DNA of 33,048 bases from a virus (IMGVR_UViG_3300044670_000088:1-33048); one strand, 5' to 3'. Shown: positions 4,026 to 23,688, numbered from the stretch's first letter. The notes: generated by a model not told the origin, from the sequence alone. Translations and numbers: made by a program.

Positions 4026-4070
4026 TTGCTTTGTTTCTTCGTATCATATACATTTGACAGTATCAGTCAA
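4026..4070. promoter_or_regulatory. Overlapping divergent sigma70 promoters with a 17-bp operator palindrome
   Basis: Rightward TTGCTT(4026)-N17-TACATT(4049); leftward TTGACT(4070)-N16-TATGAT(4048); palindrome TTGAC-AGTATCA-GTCAA at 4054-4070. Confidence 0.7.
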
Positions 4071-4086
4071 TACGGGGAGATTTGAT

Positions 4087-5064
4087 ATGGGGCTGAAAGG
4101 TTCAACAGCTTTTGCTGATCGCTTTAATTATCGATGGCATAGCAACCCAAGTACCCCAGATGCTTGGACTTTTTTTGATAAGGCCGTGCAAAGGGTGCAA
4201 CGAGATGAAGCGTTTAAGATACTACGGGGCGAAACAGAAGGTGACACTTCTTGGGCCGAAAAGATCTTGGATCAAGGTGCGTACTATAAGGATGCGATGG
4301 GCTCAACGCAGTTCACTGACAATCCAAACATGGTTAGCGGAAGGGCAGTGCAGCAATATGCTGATCGGCTACTCGTCGATGAAGTATCACCTTCTGATGC
4401 ATACGCAGACGCAATCAATTTGCTGCATGGCTTTCGGGGCGGTGACTGGCGCGACACTGAGAAAGATGCGCGCATCATTGAGAACCGAGAGAGACTTTAC
4501 TACGATGCTGAAGGCAAGCGTAGCAAAGAACCAACTCATAATGAGTTCGGGCTTGTCTGCGAAAACGCAGCGGCAGGCATACGCGAGGCGATGCAAGGTG
4601 CGAACAGGATCACGGGTGAAATAGAATTGTTTGGCCCGCTGCCTGGTTGTGAGTTGCCATACTTTGGCAAGCCAGATTACGGTGATGGCCGGTGCGAGTT
4701 AAAGACGCAATGGGATCAGGCTGCAGATACAGACAGCCCGCGTGCGAACTCACTACCAAAAAAAATCAAAGCACCGCATATGATGCAGATCGCAGGCTAT
4801 TGGTATTTGTCTGGAATTGTGACGCGCATCGTCTATGCTAACAGGCTCGGATATGTAGTGCATGAGCCCACAGAGGAAGAGCTAGACCGTGCGCTCGGTG
4901 ACATTGCGTCAGCCTGCAAACGCCGGGAAAAACTTATGAAGGTTGCAGATGATGTACAAGATCTGCTGCGCCTGACCGATCCGCATTTTGCTGACAGCTT
5001 TGTCTGGCGAGATGTTCACCCAGAAGTATTAATGCAAGCCAAGAAAATGTTTGGAGTAATTTGA
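4087..5064 (+). CDS. PD-(D/E)XK exonuclease-like protein
   Basis: GKPDY..ELKT..HMMQIAGY motifs; SD GGGGAG before ATG 4087. Confidence 0.75.
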   Translation: MGLKGSTAFADRFNYRWHSNPSTPDAWTFFDKAVQRVQRDEAFKILRGETEGDTSWAEKILDQGAYYKDAMGSTQFTDNPNMVSGRAVQQYADRLLVDEVSPSDAYADAINLLHGFRGGDWRDTEKDARIIENRERLYYDAEGKRSKEPTHNEFGLVCENAAAGIREAMQGANRITGEIELFGPLPGCELPYFGKPDYGDGRCELKTQWDQAADTDSPRANSLPKKIKAPHMMQIAGYWYLSGIVTRIVYANRLGYVVHEPTEEELDRALGDIASACKRREKLMKVADDVQDLLRLTDPHFADSFVWRDVHPEVLMQAKKMFGVI

Positions 5065-5699
5065 TGGCAGATCTTTTAAACGCAATGAACGAGGTCAATG
5101 ACCTCAACCGCACGCACGGTGTAACGCAGCGTGGCGGTAAGAAATACACAGAGGTCTTTGTGCGCGTCGAAGCTTTTCGTAAAGCTTTCGGCCTAGACTT
5201 TGGCATCAACACAGAAATACTTGTGGATGATGGGCAGCGCGTAGTGGTAAAAGCTACAGTAACAAATGCACAGGGCACGATCATTGGCTCTGGCATGGCT
5301 GAAGAAGTACGCGGGCAGGGCAATGTAAACAAAACATCTGCATTGGAAAACGGGGAAACATCTGCGATAGGCCGAGCGCTTGCCAGCCTTGGCCTGCATG
5401 GCGGCAGCTACGCCTCATTGAATGAGATAGATGCAGTGCAAAGAAAGACGCAGGCAATGGCACAGCAGCCAGCACCGGCAGCACAGCCTGCAACACCTAA
5501 GTCAGATAAAGAACAAGCAATCGCTTGGTGCAAAGATCTTGTTGCGAAATACAACGCAGCAAATAGCAGGCGGGAGCTAAGCGAGATTGACCGCAACACA
5601 CCAGACGCAGCGCTGGAAGCATTGAAGAATGATTATCCAGATCTGCACCAACTGCTCATAGAGCGCTTCACTCAAAAGGAGAATAACCTTGTCAACTAA
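5064..5699 (+). CDS. Single-strand annealing protein/recombinase (Rad52/Sak-like)
   Basis: KKYTEVFVRVEAFR..VVVKATV..GSGMAEE..ALENGETSAIGRALA; lies between the exonuclease and the SSB-like gene. Confidence 0.7.
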   Translation: MADLLNAMNEVNDLNRTHGVTQRGGKKYTEVFVRVEAFRKAFGLDFGINTEILVDDGQRVVVKATVTNAQGTIIGSGMAEEVRGQGNVNKTSALENGETSAIGRALASLGLHGGSYASLNEIDAVQRKTQAMAQQPAPAAQPATPKSDKEQAIAWCKDLVAKYNAANSRRELSEIDRNTPDAALEALKNDYPDLHQLLIERFTQKENNLVN

Positions 5700-14100: not shown

Positions 14101-15293
14101 TCAACATAGGCCTTAATAGACTGCTGCGTAGCCAGCTTAGTATCGCTGTTAGATGACATGTCATCTTCGTCTAAGATCCCAGTAACCGTAGTGCTGCTGG
14201 CAATGTTAAGGCTTGTGTTAGTCGTAATCGCACCAACAACTTGAACCAGGCCAACAAACCCCAAAGTTGGAGATGTAAATGTTATCTGATCTCCACTACC
14301 ATTTAAGACAATGCCAGCCTTACTTGCGCTGTATGACTCGATATTTACAGCGCCATTGGTGGCTGAAAGCGTTGCCCCGCTATAAGTCTGAGAGAAAAAG
14401 CTGGTAGTCGCAGCTATAAGTGGCTGGTTAAAGCTACCATTAACTTCAAATGTCGGATTAGCCGTGCTGCCAAACGAAAGTTTTTCAGATCCGTTTGTAG
14501 TGTCAAAAGTTAAATAATTATTAGAACCCTCTTTAATCTCCAAGGCAGTTGCAGAATTATCCGTTAGCAATATATCGCCGCTGCTGATTGTAAGCCCAGA
14601 AATAGTTGTGCCGGTGGATGCTACGCTAATTACCTCAGAGCCACTGACAGAAAAGTTTATCTGGTCTGCCGCGCCGAAATACATACCTGTGTTAGTGTCA
14701 CCAATATTTGTAATGCTTGGCGCAGAGGCAGATCCATCTGCAAATGAAGCAACGCCACTAACGCTTAAATTGACCGTTCCGATACTAGGAACATTAGCTA
14801 TATTTGTTGTTGAAACATTGCCAGAAGTATCAAAGCTAATAATTTGACCCGCACGATCAGCAGCAGATGGCAAAGTGTTTTCAAGCCCAGATCCTACGTC
14901 ACCTTCTGGGAATGAAATCGCTAAGTCATTGCTTGTCGCTTCCTGCTGCACAAGCATTGTAAGCTTATCCAGCGCGTCTTCATGCGCCTCTGCAGGAAAG
15001 GGATCATTTGGCACATAGTTTGTTTCTTGCGTTATTGGGAGAACGCGACGAATAACAGCCGTGTTGCCACTCGGAGGGGCTGTAACAAAAACCACATTTC
15101 CACCGCTGTCAGACCCCACACCAGTTACCGTGTAGTTTGTAGTCAGAGACTGTGTAGTCTCTGCTCCAGTAGTGTCATTAACCAAAGTTACAACAAGATT
15201 TGTGTCTTGGAAAATTTTAAAGGTATACGCAAAAGTGGTTGTGCTGCCATTGCCAGCATAACTCTTAAAGTTTGTGCCTGTTGATACTGTCAT
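11127..15293 (-). CDS. Tail fibre with T7 gp17-like N-terminus, repeat shaft and C-terminal intramolecular chaperone (peptidase S74)
   Basis: YAGNGSTTTFAYTF..EDALDKLTM; MRIDSSGNVGIGT repeats; ~14-aa NTAVGYQAGYSNTTG repeats; SDVKLKENI..GVIAQEVE..coiled coil. Confidence 0.92.
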   Translation of the reverse strand: MTVSTGTNFKSYAGNGSTTTFAYTFKIFQDTNLVVTLVNDTTGAETTQSLTTNYTVTGVGSDSGGNVVFVTAPPSGNTAVIRRVLPITQETNYVPNDPFPAEAHEDALDKLTMLVQQEATSNDLAISFPEGDVGSGLENTLPSAADRAGQIISFDTSGNVSTTNIANVPSIGTVNLSVSGVASFADGSASAPSITNIGDTNTGMYFGAADQINFSVSGSEVISVASTGTTISGLTISSGDILLTDNSATALEIKEGSNNYLTFDTTNGSEKLSFGSTANPTFEVNGSFNQPLIAATTSFFSQTYSGATLSATNGAVNIESYSASKAGIVLNGSGDQITFTSPTLGFVGLVQVVGAITTNTSLNIASSTTVTGILDEDDMSSNSDTKLATQQSIKAYVDAQVGTVDTLAEVLGNGNTTGGTNIVVSANDVISLDDGTNALPSLTTTGDLNTGIYFPAADEVGITTGGTQRVKVDSTGVNVTGTVTVGTLIDTPDIETSTVSARDGTTSFSIADSTGTATFNNSLTISRNSGTGFLPTLDIICTDTTAIQNQTLGALDFQTSDTNEAGTLASIQARKTNSTSASTNLAALELYTGRPGDLIKAVTINADQTTSFAAAIDVTGTVTATGTSVFASLDISGDIDVDGTTNLDATNIVGALDVTGTITSDGLTVDTNTLHVDATNNRVGIGTDSPSAQFTSYKSLNGDPQLGHFYNDNSGAAAEAVIYITNSSTVADGLFLQTYGANGTTAGGFVQDASIIGSGTGASGGLSIMTRANADMRFYTNGHTNERMTIDSSGNVNLTGLSNGTLNFAGGNTSGGSKIQAWNDAGNANGYLAIEGYSSEYMRIDSSGNVGIGTTSPSKKLHISGDRDAILRFENTRTVESGDQILGSLEFYSNDESGTGANVRSRINAFTAGGGNASYLTFSTADGTTDDVEAMRIDSSGNLIIASTGGTLQTATAGTSNFRAGVNAGNSIVSGGNYNTVVGDEAGTAITTGDNNVAVGFEALKTSTTASSNTAVGYQAGYSNTTGTDLTAIGYQSLDANTTGNYSTAVGYASLGTNTTGSANEAFGREALRLNTTGSNNTALGYRSLDANTTGGNNIAVGQFALGSNTTASNNTAVGYQAGYSATTSGLNTFVGDTAGYNSNATNGRNTFIGTAAGYAMTTGEKNTILGRYNGNFGGLDIRTSDNNIVLSDGDGNPRLYSDGNGSWYAIRSNTNGAGLEINNTGVYGSVNIQSKVNRTSSGGNYYFYAAYDSAAGAYKFQVHDDGDVVNTNNSYGAISDVKLKENIVDSNSQWDDIKALTVRKYSMKSDNLDAPNMLGVIAQEVEAAGMTGLVRETIDRDGEGNLLETSTKQVNYSILYMKAVKALQEAMDRIETLEAKVTALENA

Positions 15294-18200
15294 CTGACTA
15301 TTTCACCCTGTTCTTGTAAGCGCTGACTGTCTTCGTATGCTTGCGCTAAGTTAGCATATTTTGGAATTGCAAGTAACACTTCAAATCCCCTATCAAGATA
15401 TTGCTTGTTTAAAGCGCGTACCATAGACACACGATCCTTATCTGATGCCCGATCATAAGCACGGCCCAGAGGATTGCTTGTCGTTGTGGTCATCGCCTCT
15501 AACGCCTCGCGGAATGTTACGCGCCCTATGCGAGACTGCCTGACCGTTACCTCGTTTTTGCTCATGTCAATCCAGTCAGCCATTGCGCCATAGCTTAACT
15601 TCATGCCGCCTTTGCTTGACGGGTTTGTAAGCGGCCAGCCACCAGTCGCGGAAGATAACCGCATAAGCTCTGCTTGATAGTCTGGCACCTCTTCACCTTC
15701 GCGGATACGAATACCGCTAAGATTGTTGAAGATAGCCAGCCCCGGCTTTGTTGCAAGGCTAACATCATTGGCACCGATCTTATTGCCCAGCGTGTCAAAG
15801 ACTGGAGCATTGCGGTCATTCTCGTCGCGGAAGAAACTATCCTTAGATTGATAGCCATCCATTGTTTTAAACAAGCTAACGATCTGACTGCCAAAGTCAG
15901 TCTTAGGCATACCCACTAGCTTATAGTCTGGCGTACCGTCAGCCTTCGCATATTTAAACGTGCCATCTTCGTTTTTCTCTAGCACATCTTTTTCTGTGTA
16001 ATATGTAACGTCACCGCGTGGCCTAAGAACAGATGGATCTATCATGCGACCACGCGCTCGCTGCAACGAACTCACTGGGCTTGGGATACCTACAATCGTT
16101 GCAGCCTCTGCTGGCCCTCTGCCTAATCGCGTAGGATCGCCATACTCCAGAGCAAAGACAACATCAGACAATCCCTGCAGCATTGGCAGTTCTTTGTAGT
16201 AGTCTATTACAGATCCAACTGCAGCAGCCGCTAAGTTACCGCGCACCTCTGGATCTCTCGTCATATGCATCCGCTGCACTACGTCAGCAGTTAGCGCAAG
16301 AATACCGCCAACAGGTTCATAGCCAGAATAACTTACATAGGTTAGCTTTCCATTTGGCCTGCCATACACATCATAGAGCGGCATGTCATCGCCGTTCCGA
16401 TCTTTCGGCCAATCTTCGCCCCTAAACACAAGGCTATACGGTTGCCATCCAGATGGCAAAGCTTCCCGCAACTTAGGGTCAGACGGCATCGCTCCCGTAA
16501 TATGCCCCTGCATCGCATAGTTCGCCATGACAGCCATTGTGCCGCCGCCAACAGTTAAACGCCCTGCCGCCATCTGCTGCGCTCGCGCACCGTTTCTGCC
16601 AGAAAGATCTGCGTAAACCTTGGGGTTAACTCCCATAAACTCTGTTGTGCGCAAAAACGCGTTTGTTGGCGCAGTAGCAAATGGCAGGATCATTCTGCCT
16701 ACTGGAATGCCGCCAATGTCAAAGCGCTGCACCATCCCGGTAAACTTACCAAACTGGCCGAGATCGCTCTGCAGCGTGTCATACTTTGCTTTGTAGTCTA
16801 ACTCTTCTGCAACATACTGCGGATCTAGCAGCAGCATACCCGCTTCATCTTGCGCCTGCTCTACAGTCTTACCATCGCGCAGTGCTTTCTTATACTGCCG
16901 GTTTGCCTGCACGTATAACTCACCGCGCTGAGACATCGTTTTGAAAAACTCATCTGATGTCAGCAACAGACGAAAAGGTATGCGGATACGCTTACCAAGC
17001 TCTGTTGTAGCCTTAGCCAGCGTGCTGTCGCTTTCACCGGCAATCGATGTGTACTGCTCAACGTCTAGCTTGCTAGCCTCACTGGCAGGCACCTCTGTGC
17101 GCCATGCAATAGATCCAGCTTTTAACGCATCACGATAGCTGTCCATCCAGCCCTTGAACCGTAGCATCGCATCATCAACGTAAACCTGATCGTCACTGAT
17201 CGGATATGCATCTGTTCCAAGAACTGTTTTGCCTTTGCGAATTACAGATCCATACATTCCTGCAATCATCTCAGCGGGCAGTTGATATGCCATGAATGCT
17301 GCAGAGCCGACAATGTTTTTAACTTGCGTAGCAGGGTTGCTAAGAAGACCGGCCAAGTAAGCTTCAGAAATCATCTGCCGTGTTTTAGCTCTCCAGCCGC
17401 CACGCGCAAACTCATTCGCTCCACGCATACCATTTGCGTTTAAATCCTGCAGGAACCGCGTTGCCATTTCATCAACAAGATCTCCACCGCCGCTTTCCTG
17501 CAGTAATCGTTTGGCCTCTTGCGCCTGACGCACTGCGCTTTCTTCGCCGCCCACCTTAATCTGAAAAGACTGCAATGCACGCGCTGCCTCTGTTTGCGCG
17601 CCTTTGACCTGCAACTGTATGCCAGCATGTATTGATAGCTGCCTGCGGAATGCTAACCGATCTGCATCAGAGCCCATGCCAGACTTTATCTTTGTGGCTA
17701 GCGTTTCCAACTTGTCAGCGCTGCGCACCAATAGCTCACGCGCCGCAACCATTTGCTCTGCGTTTAGTGAGCCATCGCCAATCTTACGTTTTAGCAGTGC
17801 CTTGGTAAAGCCTGCTTCATCTGCTAGCGCCTCTGCGGCCCGATCAATCGTAACCTCATTCGGCACATAGCCACGCTTGCGCGCAACAGTCTCATCCTTG
17901 TAAATCTCAGACAGCGCTGTGATCGTAGCCTTTACGTCATCAGTCGTGTCCATGTAATCAAAGTTAAAGTCACCGCCTTCTTGCAGCGTCTTAATGCCAG
18001 CCTGCTGGCTTGTTAGTAATTCTTCTAGCTGATCGGTAACGCTTTCATCTGCTACACCAGTTTCTGGCTTAAACCCACGCGCCTCTGCTGTCAGAGACTT
18101 CTTTGCCATGTCATTGACATCAACTGCCAATGCTTCTGCTTCATCAGCCTCTTTGCTAATTGCTTCCTGCGCGCCCTCTAAGATCTGCGCTGTTTCATCA

Positions 18201-18574
18201 GGCTGCGCTTGAAAGCCACGCCGCTCAAACTCTACCACGCCTTCCGGGCTAAGAACCTGTGGAGCCAACGCCTTCTGCGTTGCACGCTGAGAATATGTGC
18301 CATCGTCAGGCACAAGCCCGCGCTCTTGCGGCGTAGGTACACGCGCTGGCATAGCAGGCTGGCGTCTTGCGGCAGGCACTTGCATTGGAGAAATAGGTTG
18401 CTGAACGCTGGTAGACATCTTGTCAAGAACTTCCAACAGCGCACGGGTGCCACCACCCGCAAGCTCTACGCCTTCACGTTCTGGCCCTACAGCAAATTCA
18501 GTCGGAGCGCCCGCAACTTGGATACGCTGCCGCTGTTCCTGCTCTTCAGCAAGCTGTGCTGGATCTATTGCCAT
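15290..18574 (-). CDS. Large internal virion/ejection protein (gp16-like position)
   Basis: 1094 aa, helical; GLLSNPATQVKN..DEFFK..LPFATAPTN; immediately upstream of the fibre. Confidence 0.8.
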   Translation of the reverse strand: MAIDPAQLAEEQEQRQRIQVAGAPTEFAVGPEREGVELAGGGTRALLEVLDKMSTSVQQPISPMQVPAARRQPAMPARVPTPQERGLVPDDGTYSQRATQKALAPQVLSPEGVVEFERRGFQAQPDETAQILEGAQEAISKEADEAEALAVDVNDMAKKSLTAEARGFKPETGVADESVTDQLEELLTSQQAGIKTLQEGGDFNFDYMDTTDDVKATITALSEIYKDETVARKRGYVPNEVTIDRAAEALADEAGFTKALLKRKIGDGSLNAEQMVAARELLVRSADKLETLATKIKSGMGSDADRLAFRRQLSIHAGIQLQVKGAQTEAARALQSFQIKVGGEESAVRQAQEAKRLLQESGGGDLVDEMATRFLQDLNANGMRGANEFARGGWRAKTRQMISEAYLAGLLSNPATQVKNIVGSAAFMAYQLPAEMIAGMYGSVIRKGKTVLGTDAYPISDDQVYVDDAMLRFKGWMDSYRDALKAGSIAWRTEVPASEASKLDVEQYTSIAGESDSTLAKATTELGKRIRIPFRLLLTSDEFFKTMSQRGELYVQANRQYKKALRDGKTVEQAQDEAGMLLLDPQYVAEELDYKAKYDTLQSDLGQFGKFTGMVQRFDIGGIPVGRMILPFATAPTNAFLRTTEFMGVNPKVYADLSGRNGARAQQMAAGRLTVGGGTMAVMANYAMQGHITGAMPSDPKLREALPSGWQPYSLVFRGEDWPKDRNGDDMPLYDVYGRPNGKLTYVSYSGYEPVGGILALTADVVQRMHMTRDPEVRGNLAAAAVGSVIDYYKELPMLQGLSDVVFALEYGDPTRLGRGPAEAATIVGIPSPVSSLQRARGRMIDPSVLRPRGDVTYYTEKDVLEKNEDGTFKYAKADGTPDYKLVGMPKTDFGSQIVSLFKTMDGYQSKDSFFRDENDRNAPVFDTLGNKIGANDVSLATKPGLAIFNNLSGIRIREGEEVPDYQAELMRLSSATGGWPLTNPSSKGGMKLSYGAMADWIDMSKNEVTVRQSRIGRVTFREALEAMTTTTSNPLGRAYDRASDKDRVSMVRALNKQYLDRGFEVLLAIPKYANLAQAYEDSQRLQEQGEIVR

Positions 18575-18656: not shown

Positions 18657-21413
18657 TTATTCAGTCGCAAAAATTTCATCTACTCTAGGCTTTAATCTTG
18701 CCACCTCTGCATCTTGCACAGCAAGAGCCTCGTCATAGTCTGTAAAGACCGGAACATCTACAGCTTCGCCAAAATAATCAGGGTCATACACAAACATTAC
18801 AACATCTGGCTCGCCGTTATTATACTTTGAGAATGTTGCTTTATCCCAATCGGGCGGCGCAAACTCATCATTCCACGGCAATCTAGCAACAGGCCTAAAA
18901 CCAATGGTTTTGTATATGCCCGGAAGATATGTATCGAATGCGTCAAGCTTACGGCCACCAGCAGCCACAGCCGCCTGCAACATCGCATATGCTCCACCTT
19001 CTGGTTCTGCTTTCGATGCAAAGACCGCAACAATGTCACCATCAGATTTTATTGCAAATCCACTGCCGTTATCTGTTCTGAATAGCTGCGCATTGGCTAG
19101 CTCATCAGCAGATTTAATTTCTACTTGCGCGCCAAACTCATGGCCTGCCATCGCTTCTGTCATGTCAGAGTTATATCCTGCAGCATTATCCGCGGCTTTT
19201 ACTTGACGTATTGTTGGAGTAGATAAACCCGCTGCCTGATAGCGCGCATTTGCCGCTGGATCTGGCGTAAACTCTAGAAGCCCATCTCCCTCATCCCCTT
19301 CAACACTTCCTCGCGTGTAAGGGATGGGTTCTTTTCTAATGTCTCCTTCAGCGCGTCCTCCCGCAACTTGAGGCCTGCGCTCGGCTCTGATGGCGCGCTT
19401 GGTTGGGCTGACTTCCCTGAAACCGGCAAGCCCCTCGCCTGCCTGTTCATCTCCAGCTTTAACTTCATCGCCTGCGCGAACTCCTGATCGTAAGTCATTT
19501 AATATCTTCTCCGATGCTTCTGAAAACGAACCGGGGCGCGAAACCACGCCTAAATCCGTAAACAAGTTTTGCTCATAGAACCACAGAATAGCCTGCGCGT
19601 CCTGCTCAGATAAACCTTCTTGACCGATCCTGTCAAGCAAGCGGGCAGTGAACTCTTCCATTCTGCGCCGCTCTGTTTGATTGCGCGGCCCACCAGCTAT
19701 AGATCCATCCGGGTTTCGCATATCCCCAAAGTGTCTATTATAGCTGCGAGAAAACCATACATCTTTTGTGGTGCCCTTGTATCCGTTTATATTCAAAGAA
19801 TATCTGCCGGTCTTATCGCCAAGCACCATAGCCCCAAGATGCACGCTATCCTTACCGCCGCTTAATCCACTAGGCCCGCCACCTAATCCTGCAGCTTTGC
19901 GAACATCTGTTAGCTCTTTTAGAGTATGCGGTGACAGCCACCAATCAGCAAAACCTTCTGGGCCAAGCTCATCAATTAGATGGCTGATAACTTTCATTCC
20001 AGCGCCAACAGACTTTTGCTTCATTCCCCAACCGGCACCTTTGATGCCTTCAGTTGTAGCACCCGCCGCTGGTGGGTTCACAGGAACCTTGCCTGTTTTT
20101 AGATATTGTAAAAACGCAGCCGTTGCAGCGCGTGTATTTAGATCAACCTTGTTTCCTATAGAAGTCGGAGCCGCAAAAGCAGACCAAATAATGCGCAGCG
20201 TTTCATTGTTCGCCAGATCCTCTAAGCCCGGAACCTTAGATAATGTTAGGAATGTTTTGTTTACGTCTTCGTCATACCAGCCTCGGCCGCTGACAGATTG
20301 ATCCATTTGATATTGTATCTCATCAGCCGCAGCATCTACTGCTACATCAAAGTCTTGATTAGACGTAGGATCTAATTTTCGGCCATGAATATTAACATGG
20401 TCTTCTTCAAAGAAATCTACCAGATCTTCTATCTTAGGCTTTTTGTTGCCTTTAGCCTGCGATATTTCAAGCACTCTGTTTCTTGCAGTTTCATTGGCAG
20501 CGCCATCTGTTCTGCGTTCTACATAAGATCCTACTGGTCTTTGCGGCCCAGCGGCAGCAGTCGCATCATCAATCGCGCCAACGCCAAACGAGCTAGTTGT
20601 CGGCATATCGCCGGGCTGGTTCATTCTTCTGCCAAGCTCGGTCAAAGCATTGCGTATAGCAGGCATTGACGCCTTCAAGCCCTTAGCACCCGCCGCAGTC
20701 AGCGGAAGAGCCTCAAGAAACGACAGGCCTGCCTCTAATGCGCCCATGCCAATCGTTAATGGATCGCCAGTATTCCTACCGCGCTCAAAAGTTCTCATGC
20801 CTTCCTGCGCACCAAAGAACAAACCTGCCGGTGTAAAATCAGCAACGCCCAAGCCTAGATCGCGTGTGCTTTCTGGATTACCCCACAAGCCCTCTGCCAT
20901 CTTGCGCGCAGTAGATCTATCAATTCCAAGCACCTCAAAGATCTGGCGCAAATCACCTTCAGTGTTTTCAAAGGTTAAACGCGTAAGATCTTCACGCATT
21001 GTCGGATCACCTGGCGTTACCATTGCAGCGCCCTCACGGCGCATACGCAGTTCCTCGCCTTCGCGCAACGGTTCTGTGCGTATGCTTGGCTCTTGCCCTT
21101 GCGGGATTATACCAGCGTCTTCTACTTCGTTCTGCGTAAATCCAGCCGCCTCGTAGTCAGCCATGTCAAACGGCCGATCCAGCGTGTCTGCGTAATCACG
21201 CACCTCTGCCAATCGATCTACCGGCTCTTCACCAAGCTTGACATAACCGCCGAGAGACAGTGGCACCAAAACGTCATTGCGCCCGTTCAAAGGATTGTAC
21301 ACAGCCATCTTGTCTCTTGTCGCGGCCAAGGGCGGGGGATTGCTGGCGATCAGCGTAGCCTCATCGTACTTGTCAATCTCTTCGTCGGTGTCCATTTGGA
21401 GGAGGTCAGCCAT
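18657..21413 (-). CDS. Polyvalent internal virion protein: N-terminal region, HhH/EndoIII-glycosylase-like domain, linker, GNAT-like domain
   Basis: GWY..APTSIGNKVDLN..GDKTGRY..N..G..TKDVWFSR..AQAILW; then GFAIKSDGDIVAVF..AVAAGGRKLDAFDTYLPGIYKTIGFRPVARLPW. Confidence 0.8.
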   Translation of the reverse strand: MADLLQMDTDEEIDKYDEATLIASNPPPLAATRDKMAVYNPLNGRNDVLVPLSLGGYVKLGEEPVDRLAEVRDYADTLDRPFDMADYEAAGFTQNEVEDAGIIPQGQEPSIRTEPLREGEELRMRREGAAMVTPGDPTMREDLTRLTFENTEGDLRQIFEVLGIDRSTARKMAEGLWGNPESTRDLGLGVADFTPAGLFFGAQEGMRTFERGRNTGDPLTIGMGALEAGLSFLEALPLTAAGAKGLKASMPAIRNALTELGRRMNQPGDMPTTSSFGVGAIDDATAAAGPQRPVGSYVERRTDGAANETARNRVLEISQAKGNKKPKIEDLVDFFEEDHVNIHGRKLDPTSNQDFDVAVDAAADEIQYQMDQSVSGRGWYDEDVNKTFLTLSKVPGLEDLANNETLRIIWSAFAAPTSIGNKVDLNTRAATAAFLQYLKTGKVPVNPPAAGATTEGIKGAGWGMKQKSVGAGMKVISHLIDELGPEGFADWWLSPHTLKELTDVRKAAGLGGGPSGLSGGKDSVHLGAMVLGDKTGRYSLNINGYKGTTKDVWFSRSYNRHFGDMRNPDGSIAGGPRNQTERRRMEEFTARLLDRIGQEGLSEQDAQAILWFYEQNLFTDLGVVSRPGSFSEASEKILNDLRSGVRAGDEVKAGDEQAGEGLAGFREVSPTKRAIRAERRPQVAGGRAEGDIRKEPIPYTRGSVEGDEGDGLLEFTPDPAANARYQAAGLSTPTIRQVKAADNAAGYNSDMTEAMAGHEFGAQVEIKSADELANAQLFRTDNGSGFAIKSDGDIVAVFASKAEPEGGAYAMLQAAVAAGGRKLDAFDTYLPGIYKTIGFRPVARLPWNDEFAPPDWDKATFSKYNNGEPDVVMFVYDPDYFGEAVDVPVFTDYDEALAVQDAEVARLKPRVDEIFATE
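19274..19498 (-). CDS. Nested (+1 frame) 74-aa gene inside the polyvalent protein
   Basis: GGAG-N10-ATG; helical protein-like sequence ending LEKNPSLTREEVLKGMREMGF; coincides with a low-complexity linker in the host frame. Confidence 0.65.
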   Translation of the reverse strand: MTYDQEFAQAMKLKLEMNRQARGLPVSGKSAQPSAPSEPSAGLKLREDALKETLEKNPSLTREEVLKGMREMGF

Positions 21414-23155
21414 TAGTTAAGAACCCCTTTGTTTATGTATTCACGCATTAAAGTGCTTTTTATTCTGCCGTAATTTCTTTGTTGCGCAGTTTGATCTGTG
21501 TCTGGATTGCTCCACCATGCATCTAAGCTTGCAATCGGATCGGCAGGATCTAGCACCAAACCAACGCCTGACAAGTCTTGGTTTACGTCCTCAACATACG
21601 CCTCATAATCTAGGCGCAGACCTAAGATAAACGCTTCTTGCTGGCCTGCAATTAGCTCTTTGGCTGCAGCATTAATTTCTTGCGGTGTCATTCTAGCGTC
21701 AGGCGTAAACCGGCGCTCAACAACCATTGCCTCAAGCTCTTGCACCACGGCGTAATACGCAGCCTTTGACGCTCGCCCAGCGTCAGGATCACCAGCGCTA
21801 AGCTCATCATACTGAAACGTAGCCTTAGCAATGCGCTTTGCATCACCCAGCGCCGCATCTTCTTCTGACGCAACTGCGTCCAAGAAAAACTTAAAGTCAG
21901 CCCTTGTTAGCTGGGCTCTGCTTTCTTGCACGTCCATAGCCGTTAGCTCGCCAAAATCTTTCTTAACAAACAAGTTTTCATAAACCGTTTCATTACTTTT
22001 CGTTGCAAATCGCAACACCGGCTCATCTTCGTACTTGTCAAAGTTGGCTTGCATCGTAGGCGTTACAGCATTGTTTATATATAAAAACTTTTTCATTTCT
22101 TCAGCCGCTGTTGATGCTAAAATTTCTGCATCTGGGTCTGGAAACTTATCTTTTAAATCTGGGATGTAACGCGTAATTTCAATAGCTTTAACTCTTTCAC
22201 CGGGCTCAAATCCTGCAGCGAAATATGTAAATCTGTTTGCAGCCTGATCTATGGCAAAGTTCCTGTAATCTTCTAACTTTTTCTCTAGCTTTTCCTCTGC
22301 ATTGGCAAAGCGCGTTGCAACCTTCAGCGCATTGTCCAGCACCGCAACAGCATCATCTCTCGGCAGGTTCTGTAGCGTGTAAAGCGGATAACCGCCATTC
22401 GGCAAGTCACCAGTCTTGTCTGGATCAAGCTCACCAGCATCAATCTGCTCTAGCGCGCCAATCAGGTTCAGCACTCTAATCGGATCGGCACCCACATATG
22501 AGCCAACAACATTTTCGGCAATGTCGGTCTTCATCTTGAGATTGCTAAGCTTTACAACGTTAGCGTTTGCTGCGCCTGTCTTAACCAGACGCCCCTGATC
22601 GATAGCAACGCCCGTCAGAGCATTGTCGTAGTCTTCCCTTGTTGCGTCAGGATCAGACAGCAATTGAACAACACCAGACTGCCGAGAAGCAAGCGCAGCC
22701 TGATTGGCCGCATCAATCTTTCTGTCCAGAACGCCGCGCAGTTTAAACCGAGCATCAAGCTCCATCTGCCCAAAGCGCTCTTCAAACGCTCTGCGGGTAA
22801 ATCTATTCGGGCCCAGAGCCTCTAGCACCTTGTCGCGGATGCCTTGGCTTTCCTCATTCCATAGAGGGTTTTCGCCATCTAACACATTGTATGGCTGATC
22901 AGAGCGCGCAAAGTCTCTTGCCGCCATGTTCAAGCCTTCTGTTGCTGCGAGCAAGCCCTCGTTTAGCTTAGTCTCTTCTGCCACCTTGTAACGCATCTTA
23001 GCGTAGGCACCGACCTGACCAAGCACCTCACCAAGCACTTCGCCCTTCTGTAACTCTGCCTGAGCCAAAACACTGCCGCGCATACGCGCTCCAATGCTTC
23101 TGCCGGGTGCTTCACTGGTTGCGGCAATCTCACTACGATAAACTGGTATTCTCAT
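21413..23155 (-). CDS. Internal virion/ejection protein (gp15-like position)
   Basis: 580 aa, helical; MRIPVY start; lies between the small ejection protein and the polyvalent protein. Confidence 0.8.
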   Translation of the reverse strand: MRIPVYRSEIAATSEAPGRSIGARMRGSVLAQAELQKGEVLGEVLGQVGAYAKMRYKVAEETKLNEGLLAATEGLNMAARDFARSDQPYNVLDGENPLWNEESQGIRDKVLEALGPNRFTRRAFEERFGQMELDARFKLRGVLDRKIDAANQAALASRQSGVVQLLSDPDATREDYDNALTGVAIDQGRLVKTGAANANVVKLSNLKMKTDIAENVVGSYVGADPIRVLNLIGALEQIDAGELDPDKTGDLPNGGYPLYTLQNLPRDDAVAVLDNALKVATRFANAEEKLEKKLEDYRNFAIDQAANRFTYFAAGFEPGERVKAIEITRYIPDLKDKFPDPDAEILASTAAEEMKKFLYINNAVTPTMQANFDKYEDEPVLRFATKSNETVYENLFVKKDFGELTAMDVQESRAQLTRADFKFFLDAVASEEDAALGDAKRIAKATFQYDELSAGDPDAGRASKAAYYAVVQELEAMVVERRFTPDARMTPQEINAAAKELIAGQQEAFILGLRLDYEAYVEDVNQDLSGVGLVLDPADPIASLDAWWSNPDTDQTAQQRNYGRIKSTLMREYINKGVLN

Positions 23156-23688
23156 TTAAAGATCTCCCCCAACCCGCCAACAGCATAAATATCCTGTGAT
23201 GCTGTTCCCAAGCTATTAATCAAGCTGCGCGTGCCTTGCGCTCTAAGACCAGCAGCCTGCGCGCCGCCTTCCATCCGAGCAAGCTGCGCATTTAAAGAAG
23301 CCTCTTCCTGCGCATCGCTAATCTGCATGTTCGTAATGCTGTTGTTAAACCGCGCAACCTTTTGCGTGTAATCAAATTCTCTGGCATTCTCGCGCAACAC
23401 ATCCATTGGCGTGCCGCTGCTTAGATCAAACCCACCGTAAGAAAACCCAGAGCGCACACCGCCCTGCACCTCATCCTCAAACGCATCCCGCGCCCGATCT
23501 TGCTCAACTAAAAAGTTAGCGTTGATAATATCTCTTTGCCTGCCCAGAAGATCTATGTCACGCTCGATCAGGCTAGCATTAAAGTCAGCAGCTTCTTGCG
23601 CCCTGCGGGCTGCAGCATTCGCAGAATTTTTCTGCTGAATGCCGCCTAAGATCGTCATGCCTAAAGATATGGCTTGGAATATACTCAT
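23152..23688 (-). CDS. Small internal virion/ejection protein (gp14-like)
   Basis: Hydrophobic N-terminus, A/Q-rich helices, SYGGFDLSSGTPMDV. Confidence 0.8.
   Translation of the reverse strand: MSIFQAISLGMTILGGIQQKNSANAAARRAQEAADFNASLIERDIDLLGRQRDIINANFLVEQDRARDAFEDEVQGGVRSGFSYGGFDLSSGTPMDVLRENAREFDYTQKVARFNNSITNMQISDAQEEASLNAQLARMEGGAQAAGLRAQGTRSLINSLGTASQDIYAVGGLGEIFK

Follow-up and report, generated by a model that had tools for sequence, protein, structure and literature searches.

Several described phage and bacterial systems come close to the arrangement reported here. The spanins, of which lambda Rz/Rz1 is the example, are known in embedded, overlapped and separated architectures (PMC6139136), and small immunity open reading frames (ORFs) follow 89% of the MuF toxin genes surveyed in PMC5576092. 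The phage polyvalent proteins are described as multi-domain virion proteins with shuffled conflict domains, a GNAT among them (Iyer et al. 2017, PMC5512222), and GNAT toxins, as in the KacAT GNAT-RHH pair, are wrapped by the C-termini of their antitoxins (PMC6698736). Here we analyze a 33,048-base marine phage record (IMGVR_UViG_3300044670_000088:1-33048; 96% complete according to CheckV), the whole of which is called the window, and within it a 74-aa ORF embedded in the +1 frame of a large gene for a multi-domain protein, hereafter the host gene. Comparison with related sequences points to a real hidden gene of unusual two-sided design, whose function is likely inhibitory.

As in the spanins (PMC6139136), the small gene lies in a shifted frame within the gene for its presumed partner, and nested forms, forms running past the host stop and free-standing forms all occur. 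However, the 74-aa peptide has neither cysteine nor lipobox, its locus is not a lysis locus (holin and amidase lie 10 kb away), the product is a chimera tied to two flanking domains, and its free copies lie among cellular genes. With the MuF toxins, as presented in PMC5576092, the locus shares a virion-associated enzyme-domain protein together with a small ORF beside it whose inferred role is protection of the producer. Unlike them, the host protein has no MuF domain (no Pfam or PHROG match to one), is not encoded beside the portal gene and carries its domains internally, and the small gene lies inside the reading span of the big one and is predicted to serve both sides. The host gene also shares the general design of the polyvalent proteins: it is multi-domain, lies in the virion block and contains shuffled conflict domains. 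It differs in that the main text of PMC5512222, taken without its supplements, does not contain the words "overlap", "linker" or "glycosylase"; a literature search that left subscription papers largely outside found no account of nested genes in polyvalent-protein linkers. Finally, the C-terminal helices of the nested protein are predicted to wrap the GNAT domain, much as in KacAT (PMC6698736), but the nested gene is not part of a bicistronic chromosomal operon and the toxicity of the GNAT-like domain is putative. No RHH family was found among the Pfam matches of 31 nested-peptide members at E 0.1.

The following features of the host gene are concerned:

18657..21413, minus strand: host gene (918 aa) for a multi-domain protein of polyvalent type; the genome is podophage-like and the gene lies in its block of internal virion proteins
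19494..20441, minus strand: upstream domain, DUF7178-like, with a modelled HhH-GPD DNA-glycosylase superfamily fold (host residues ~325-640)
19509-19512, minus strand: Shine-Dalgarno (SD) core GGAG of the nested gene, 10 nt ahead of its ATG
19274..19498, minus strand: nested +1-frame gene, 74 aa, wholly within host codons 639-713
19439..19492, minus strand: N-module, nested residues 3-20, YDQEF..AM.LKL..NR, which travels with the glycosylase-like domain
19367..19438, minus strand: spacer of the nested protein, where the host frame is the more constrained
19277..19366, minus strand: C-module, nested residues 45-74, ..PGLTREE..M.EMGF stop, which travels with the GNAT-like domain
18714..19274, minus strand: downstream GNAT-like domain (host residues ~714-900)

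The earlier note on this DNA, made from the sequence of the window, had proposed an ORF with a GGAG SD at these coordinates, and the ORF was confirmed, its strand being the minus one and its N- and C-terminal residues matching those given in the note. As had been claimed, it fills the span from one domain to the other, and the host residues over it are rich in G, R, E and A (53%, against 36% in the whole host protein). A +1-frame TAA directly precedes the nested ATG. The description of the nested frame as amphipathic helices holds, going by calculated hydrophobic moments, for its two ends only (0.30 for residues 3-20 and 0.32 for residues 61-74), and fails for the spacer (0.10) and for residues 45-57 (0.08). 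The best Atlas score of the peptide, 0.89, is a lead only. When the host codons of the window are shuffled synonymously, the nested frame stays open with P=0.06, and the GNAT region has a +1 stretch that stays free of stops for longer (84 codons); from one genome alone, the ORF is thus weak evidence and only suggestive. An 81-aa +1 ORF within the GNAT-like domain (18797-19042, minus strand) was rejected as a shadow ORF because homologues carry +1 stops there (49/1344 codons).

A total of 76 sequences was examined (75 loci, repeats of the same contigs included, plus the window), from which three without a GNAT-like domain and one cut short were left out. In the resulting 72 GNAT loci with enough upstream DNA, the +1 ORF is present in 72/72, with its stop always 102-109 codons ahead of the GNAT core motif. 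These loci yield 43 distinct peptides, 42 of which have an SD-like core (loose pattern) together with an ATG or GTG. The chance of staying open under synonymous shuffling has a median of 0.085 and a mean of 0.15, and reaches 0.63 in single homologues; the frame is open in 43/43 distinct homologues against that mean expectation of 0.15, relatives not being independent. The +1 stops in homologous linkers that the earlier note had named as evidence against its proposal were not found in these loci.

The pattern of variation also points to the +1 frame. Whereas the third host codon position varies most in the flanking domains (0.50-0.63), it is the least variable one in the N-module, where variation at the three host positions is 0.36/0.30/0.13; the corresponding values in the C-module are 0.41/0.39/0.26. 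Amino acid identity of the N-module is 71% in the +1 frame versus 50% in the host frame. Dual-frame counts on close pairs, which rest on tens of substitutions per block, gave an omega of 0.17 in +1 and 2.4 in the host frame for the N-module, and of 0.25 and 1.13, respectively, for the C-module, while control blocks reverse the pattern (1.2-2.3 in +1, 0.01-0.08 in the host frame). Stop codons are likewise depleted, with no +1 stop in 924+522+364 module codons (the 924 being those of the C-module) versus 49/1344 and 31/638 in controls. Of the checks suggested beforehand, frame-specific selection and stop depletion came out in favor of the nested frame over the two modules. Among population variants (40 of 54 examined), 3/3 in nested codons 13-22 are +1-synonymous and host-changing, 4/4 in nested codons 25-31 are host-synonymous, one alters both frames, and 27/32 outside the nested gene are host-synonymous.

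A similar picture was obtained starting from the upstream domain. In 55 dereplicated loci of this domain, which reach down to ~30% identity, an SD-led +1 ORF of at least 35 aa stands right behind the domain in 44 (strict pattern), compared with 0, 0, 0 and 4 of 55 in control windows. In 12 further genome-contig loci, the +1 frame behind this domain is open in 11 (by eye) and has an SD-led start in six (strict rule). The gene has the features of same-strand nested genes, namely a shifted frame inside its host, a conserved initiation signal and purifying selection. Because of the conserved openness, the selection and the controls, the comparative sequence data exclude a shadow-ORF origin by chance and identify the nested ORF as a real gene. 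Contigs from RNA runs were considered as a sign of transcription or translation and set aside, since they are assembled contigs only and the library may hold DNA.

The alignments further indicate that the nested peptide is bipartite: two modules are joined in it, each belonging with one of the flanking domains. This bipartite design is new here. Hence, of the toxin-immunity pair in one gene proposed by the earlier note, the nested gene itself stood, but not the scheme of one partner for one domain, as there are two modules for two domains. Counts by upstream class are based on 53 dereplicated GNAT loci. When the glycosylase-like domain lies upstream, the N-module is found in 29/30 representatives; when an unrelated domain X lies there, a different N-module is found in 17/17; and the C-module is present in 50/53 of the loci. 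On the GNAT tree, the upstream class switches seven times, two of the switches being forced by strong branches. Module profiles were run over 10,477 segments from 335 loci collected through these domains, excluding row L324 and the "GNAT downstream" flag of N-module matches. All N-module matches (48/48) follow the end motif of the glycosylase-like domain, and 65/66 C-module matches precede the GNAT motif, the remaining locus being cut short.

Either half can be exchanged or missing. Where an HD.FGH domain follows the glycosylase-like domain (L021-L023), the N-module is kept and the C-half is replaced by the module found upstream of the HD.FGH domain in 41/49 representatives; this module is often a short gene with its own SD, and in L267 it is fused to the domain-X-type N-module. 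A zeta-toxin domain, the upstream domain in some related loci (Pfam E 3e-14), has its own downstream module, which occurs alone in L041/L053/L066/L104 and fused to the C-module in L057. The N-module occurs without the C-module in L126/L127 and L131-L135, and the C-module without the N-module in L228/L232. These swaps and single-module forms bear out the claim that the nested gene travels with shuffled domains. The cultured Limnohabitans phage DC33 (L076) retains this layout with domain identities of 24%/38%, its nested ORF occupying codons 1280-1350 of a 3125-aa gene. In Microbacterium phage Caron, this GNAT-like domain belongs to a MuF protein and is preceded by a divergent +1 ORF with a weak SD. 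Linkers behind the GNAT domain are mostly closed in +1, so nesting is not common to every linker.

Other small frames and motifs were observed in related loci. In L240-L319, a separate, widespread nested module with a DPN.PETEEDGIRAEAL pattern lies just upstream of the HD.FGH domain, and the DPN.PETEEDGIRAEAL pattern is loosely present in isolate MinM2 too. SD-led +1 ORFs of 49-56 aa behind zeta-like domains (L041, L053, L066, L104) are candidates for a new zeta antitoxin type. The 3125-aa gene of DC33 contains a second SD-led +1 ORF (62 aa), which occupies host codons 1563-1624 in the stretch separating the GNAT-like domain from the one that follows. In Octadecabacter virus BD1 (L077; host residues ~700-735), the host frame encodes an acidic helix ahead of the HD.FGH domain, at the place of the +1 module of other loci; it is possibly an in-frame fused version of that module, to which its resemblance is weak. 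Finally, P0202 and P0216 share an extra N-terminal Trp/Asp-Pro motif, perhaps a third module, ahead of different N-modules.

As to which frame is the overprint, both frames are constrained in the spacer, the host frame more so (omega 0.11 in host and 0.20 in +1, from small counts; amino acid identity 59% versus 41%). Over both the N-module and the C-module, the host linker is unconstrained; this makes the linker, rather than the small gene, the likelier product of overprinting, with its G/R/E/A composition arising as a by-product. In the host linker, the invariant arginines FR......R..R..RR (19371-19427, minus strand) are under selection, and this Arg-rich motif may be an N-terminal helix of the GNAT-like domain. 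When the glycosylase-like domain ends its gene, a +1 ORF still follows and runs past the host stop in 8/14 cases, in the manner of an ordinary downstream gene. The N-module profile left the distant gene-terminal glycosylase-like loci (L138-L160 group, L159, L321) unmatched, so that the homology of their +1 ORFs is positional only; L135 alone was matched, weakly. We infer that the small partner genes came first and were then read through in another frame upon domain fusion, which would also account for the G/R-rich linkers. Three database proteins (P0209, P0211, P0201) switch between host and nested frame, probably through assembly frameshifts and possibly as natural fusions.

Homologues of the nested peptide also exist outside any host gene. 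A profile search gave 104 clusters, 93 of them of at most 125 aa; long repeat proteins among the matches were set aside as apparently generic helical matches. Eleven clusters, most chosen for spacers that looked overlap-free, were aligned as a query for metagenome contigs, in which 168 stretches were confirmed and the best 80 of 168 were kept. Free-standing two-module homologues, defined by stops in the would-be host frame, were found in 77 of these best 80 loci (60 distinct peptides), the other three being nested; as the query had been selected for a free-standing look, 77/80 is no frequency estimate. An SD core is present in 72 of the best 80 loci, and in the fetched DNA the profile of either domain matched only at the three nested ones. 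In the subset scanned, neighbors include metabolic or cellular genes (urease operon, FAA hydrolase, M24 peptidase, IbpA) and defense or mobile genes (C5 methylase, MrcB-like plus type III restriction helicase, HNH, resolvase, integrases, IS630). The neighborhoods are thus cellular, often mobile or defense-like DNA, and free-standing homologues among cellular genes are what captured immunity genes would be expected to look like. A free-standing representative had no match in viral contigs. In 13 free-standing copies and one cut locus, a frame on the opposite strand is open throughout; such a frame is not a same-strand host gene.

The identity of the flanking domains bears on what such a peptide could do. 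The upstream domain had been called glycosylase-like, and the fold of its model agrees. Built from the alignment, the model reached a pLDDT of 94 (42 from the single sequence); VIA ranks 1-23 are all HhH-type (Z 11.3-5.3, the next unrelated row at 4.6), the best match having Z 11.3 and a root-mean-square deviation of 3.9 over 198 aligned residues. The top Foldseek rows agree with the HhH type, but at E 0.2, and the domain profile gave chance rows only against PDB. The domain scores 0.96 in Atlas to DUF7178 clusters, and PF23802 is matched by 10/50 of its aligned homologues, the copy in the window being without a match. As modelled, it has the HhH-GPD glycosylase superfamily fold. Among the HhH-type structure matches are PUGT, a phage enzyme that modifies bases, and enzymes of queuine salvage; with PUGT among the relatives, the fold does not fix base excision versus base modification. 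In BFVD, relatives by fold carry the name large polyvalent protein, and the literature search found no paper on DUF7178. The downstream domain appears, by weaker indications, GNAT-like: it matches phrog_2563 (E 3e-11), its relatives in Streptomyces phages are annotated by depositors as "acetyltransferase", its profile weakly matches PDB 2qec (E 0.012), and Acetyltransf_7 is matched in only 1/17 members (E 0.041).

We consider it somewhat probable (roughly 0.55) that the nested product is a two-sided inhibitor of both flanking domains that has been captured by hosts. The upstream glycosylase-fold domain would be bound by its N-terminal helix, and the downstream GNAT-like domain by its C-terminal helical part. 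With a ribosome-binding site of its own on the same late mRNA, the product would be made in the producing cell and silence both domain activities there, and the prediction is that the host protein enters the virion, and is injected, on its own. Recombination inside the spacer would yield a new domain pair and the matching chimeric inhibitor in one step, because each half adjoins its own domain on the DNA, and the free-standing copies that marine bacteria appear to carry would act as captured antidotes. The nested gene has the adjacent, co-travelling position of a small ORF in a toxin-immunity cassette of the polymorphic-toxin type, along with orphan copies; translation, binding, inhibition, injection and protection we infer. 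A bolder version is put forward tentatively: the genes of injected phage proteins would consist of cassettes with a +1-frame cognate antidote beside each effector domain, recombination in the linkers would automatically assemble two-sided chimeras, the linkers would be the read-through shadow of these antidotes, and marine bacteria would have captured the chimeras as stand-alone genes for anti-effector defense.

Several results weigh against the inhibitor reading. A GNAT-like domain occurs without such an upstream ORF in vir075 (a MuF fusion), Itza and HATV-2; 11/55 glycosylase-domain representatives fail the strict SD test; and the HD.FGH domain lacks a module in 8/49 representatives (by pattern), as well as in BD1 and Rizal. 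The nested peptide matches no Pfam or PHROG family, and the toxicity or activity of both flanking domains is putative, resting on folds and family hints. The free-standing set was drawn by a query picked to look free-standing, many of the contigs are short (only 23 of the best 80 loci have 1 kb on both sides), and a search of 401 sampled genomes of one class with the free-standing profile, run without a positive control, gave no match. In addition, physical linkage alone is also expected to produce co-travel. This last point is central to an unlikely alternative, namely that the nested ORF is a genuine gene with an independent function, for example as a small regulatory or host-binding protein, and that its halves track the domains only through recombination breakpoints in the spacer. 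The free-standing copies, in which the two modules remain joined although neither domain is close by, fit this idea, as does the C-module pattern, which also scores on unrelated helical repeat proteins. Nevertheless, such a protein would not be expected to survive having either half swapped outright or removed, and N-only forms and C-only forms are found, as are at least five N x C combinations, each fitting its neighbors; moreover, in the distant 3125-aa protein the GNAT-like domain is still accompanied by the C-module.

Cognate co-travel would be explained equally well if the modules bound their neighbor domains to activate them, or to act as chaperones for their folding, solubility or packaging, and the host gene does sit in the virion block; the core proteins of podophages must be packaged and ejected. 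This explanation is also rather improbable, as a cell gains little from a free chaperone for a phage domain that it lacks, and zeta toxin, GNAT-like and glycosylase fold are all conflict enzyme types. The fixed place of the +1 stop, 102-109 codons ahead of the GNAT core motif, could instead suggest translation control, either a programmed frameshift to an alternative C-terminus or a restart at the GNAT-like domain. We regard this as very improbable: a +1 stop lies 0-1 codons ahead of the start in 19/43 homologues, just six scattered host-frame start codons occur near the stop among the 43, and both the amino-acid-level selection in +1 and the free-standing copies speak against it. Least probable of all, to the point of being negligible, is a shadow ORF left open by chance in a hydrophilic linker with few codons that give +1 stops. 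The probabilities of openness for the window (0.06) and for single homologues (up to 0.63) would allow it, but not readily the openness of all 43 (their kinship notwithstanding), the low variability of host third positions within the modules, the closure of most other linkers behind the GNAT domain, or the existence of the same protein free of any overlap.

With respect to the genome setting, the minus strand of the window encodes terminase, portal, capsid, tail, internal virion proteins, tail fiber, holin and amidase. The host gene, for which 238 relatives were found, stands after the tail genes, and its product has no PDB sequence match. Its neighbors are given for context:

15290..18574, minus strand: downstream neighbor, internal virion protein (phrog_6651, E 3e-15)
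21413..23688, minus strand: upstream neighbors, a 580-aa protein without family and a 178-aa internal-virion-like protein

The 178-aa protein (23152..23688) matches phrog_418 at E 6e-4. Two plus-strand ORFs of 336 and 212 aa (4054-5699) break the otherwise minus-strand genome, the second of them being phrog_11717.

If true, the two-sided inhibitor would explain how phages can produce and recombine enzyme domains destined for injection while the cell that makes them stays unharmed. The finding points to a layer of small phage proteins missed by annotation because they lie inside giant genes, and the free-standing copies suggest an unrecognized bacterial counter-defense, the theft of the phage's own off-switch. 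Short modules that occur in naturally swapped series make cognate specificity directly testable, and they offer a handle on the roles of the uncharacterized DUF7178-like and GNAT-like domains.

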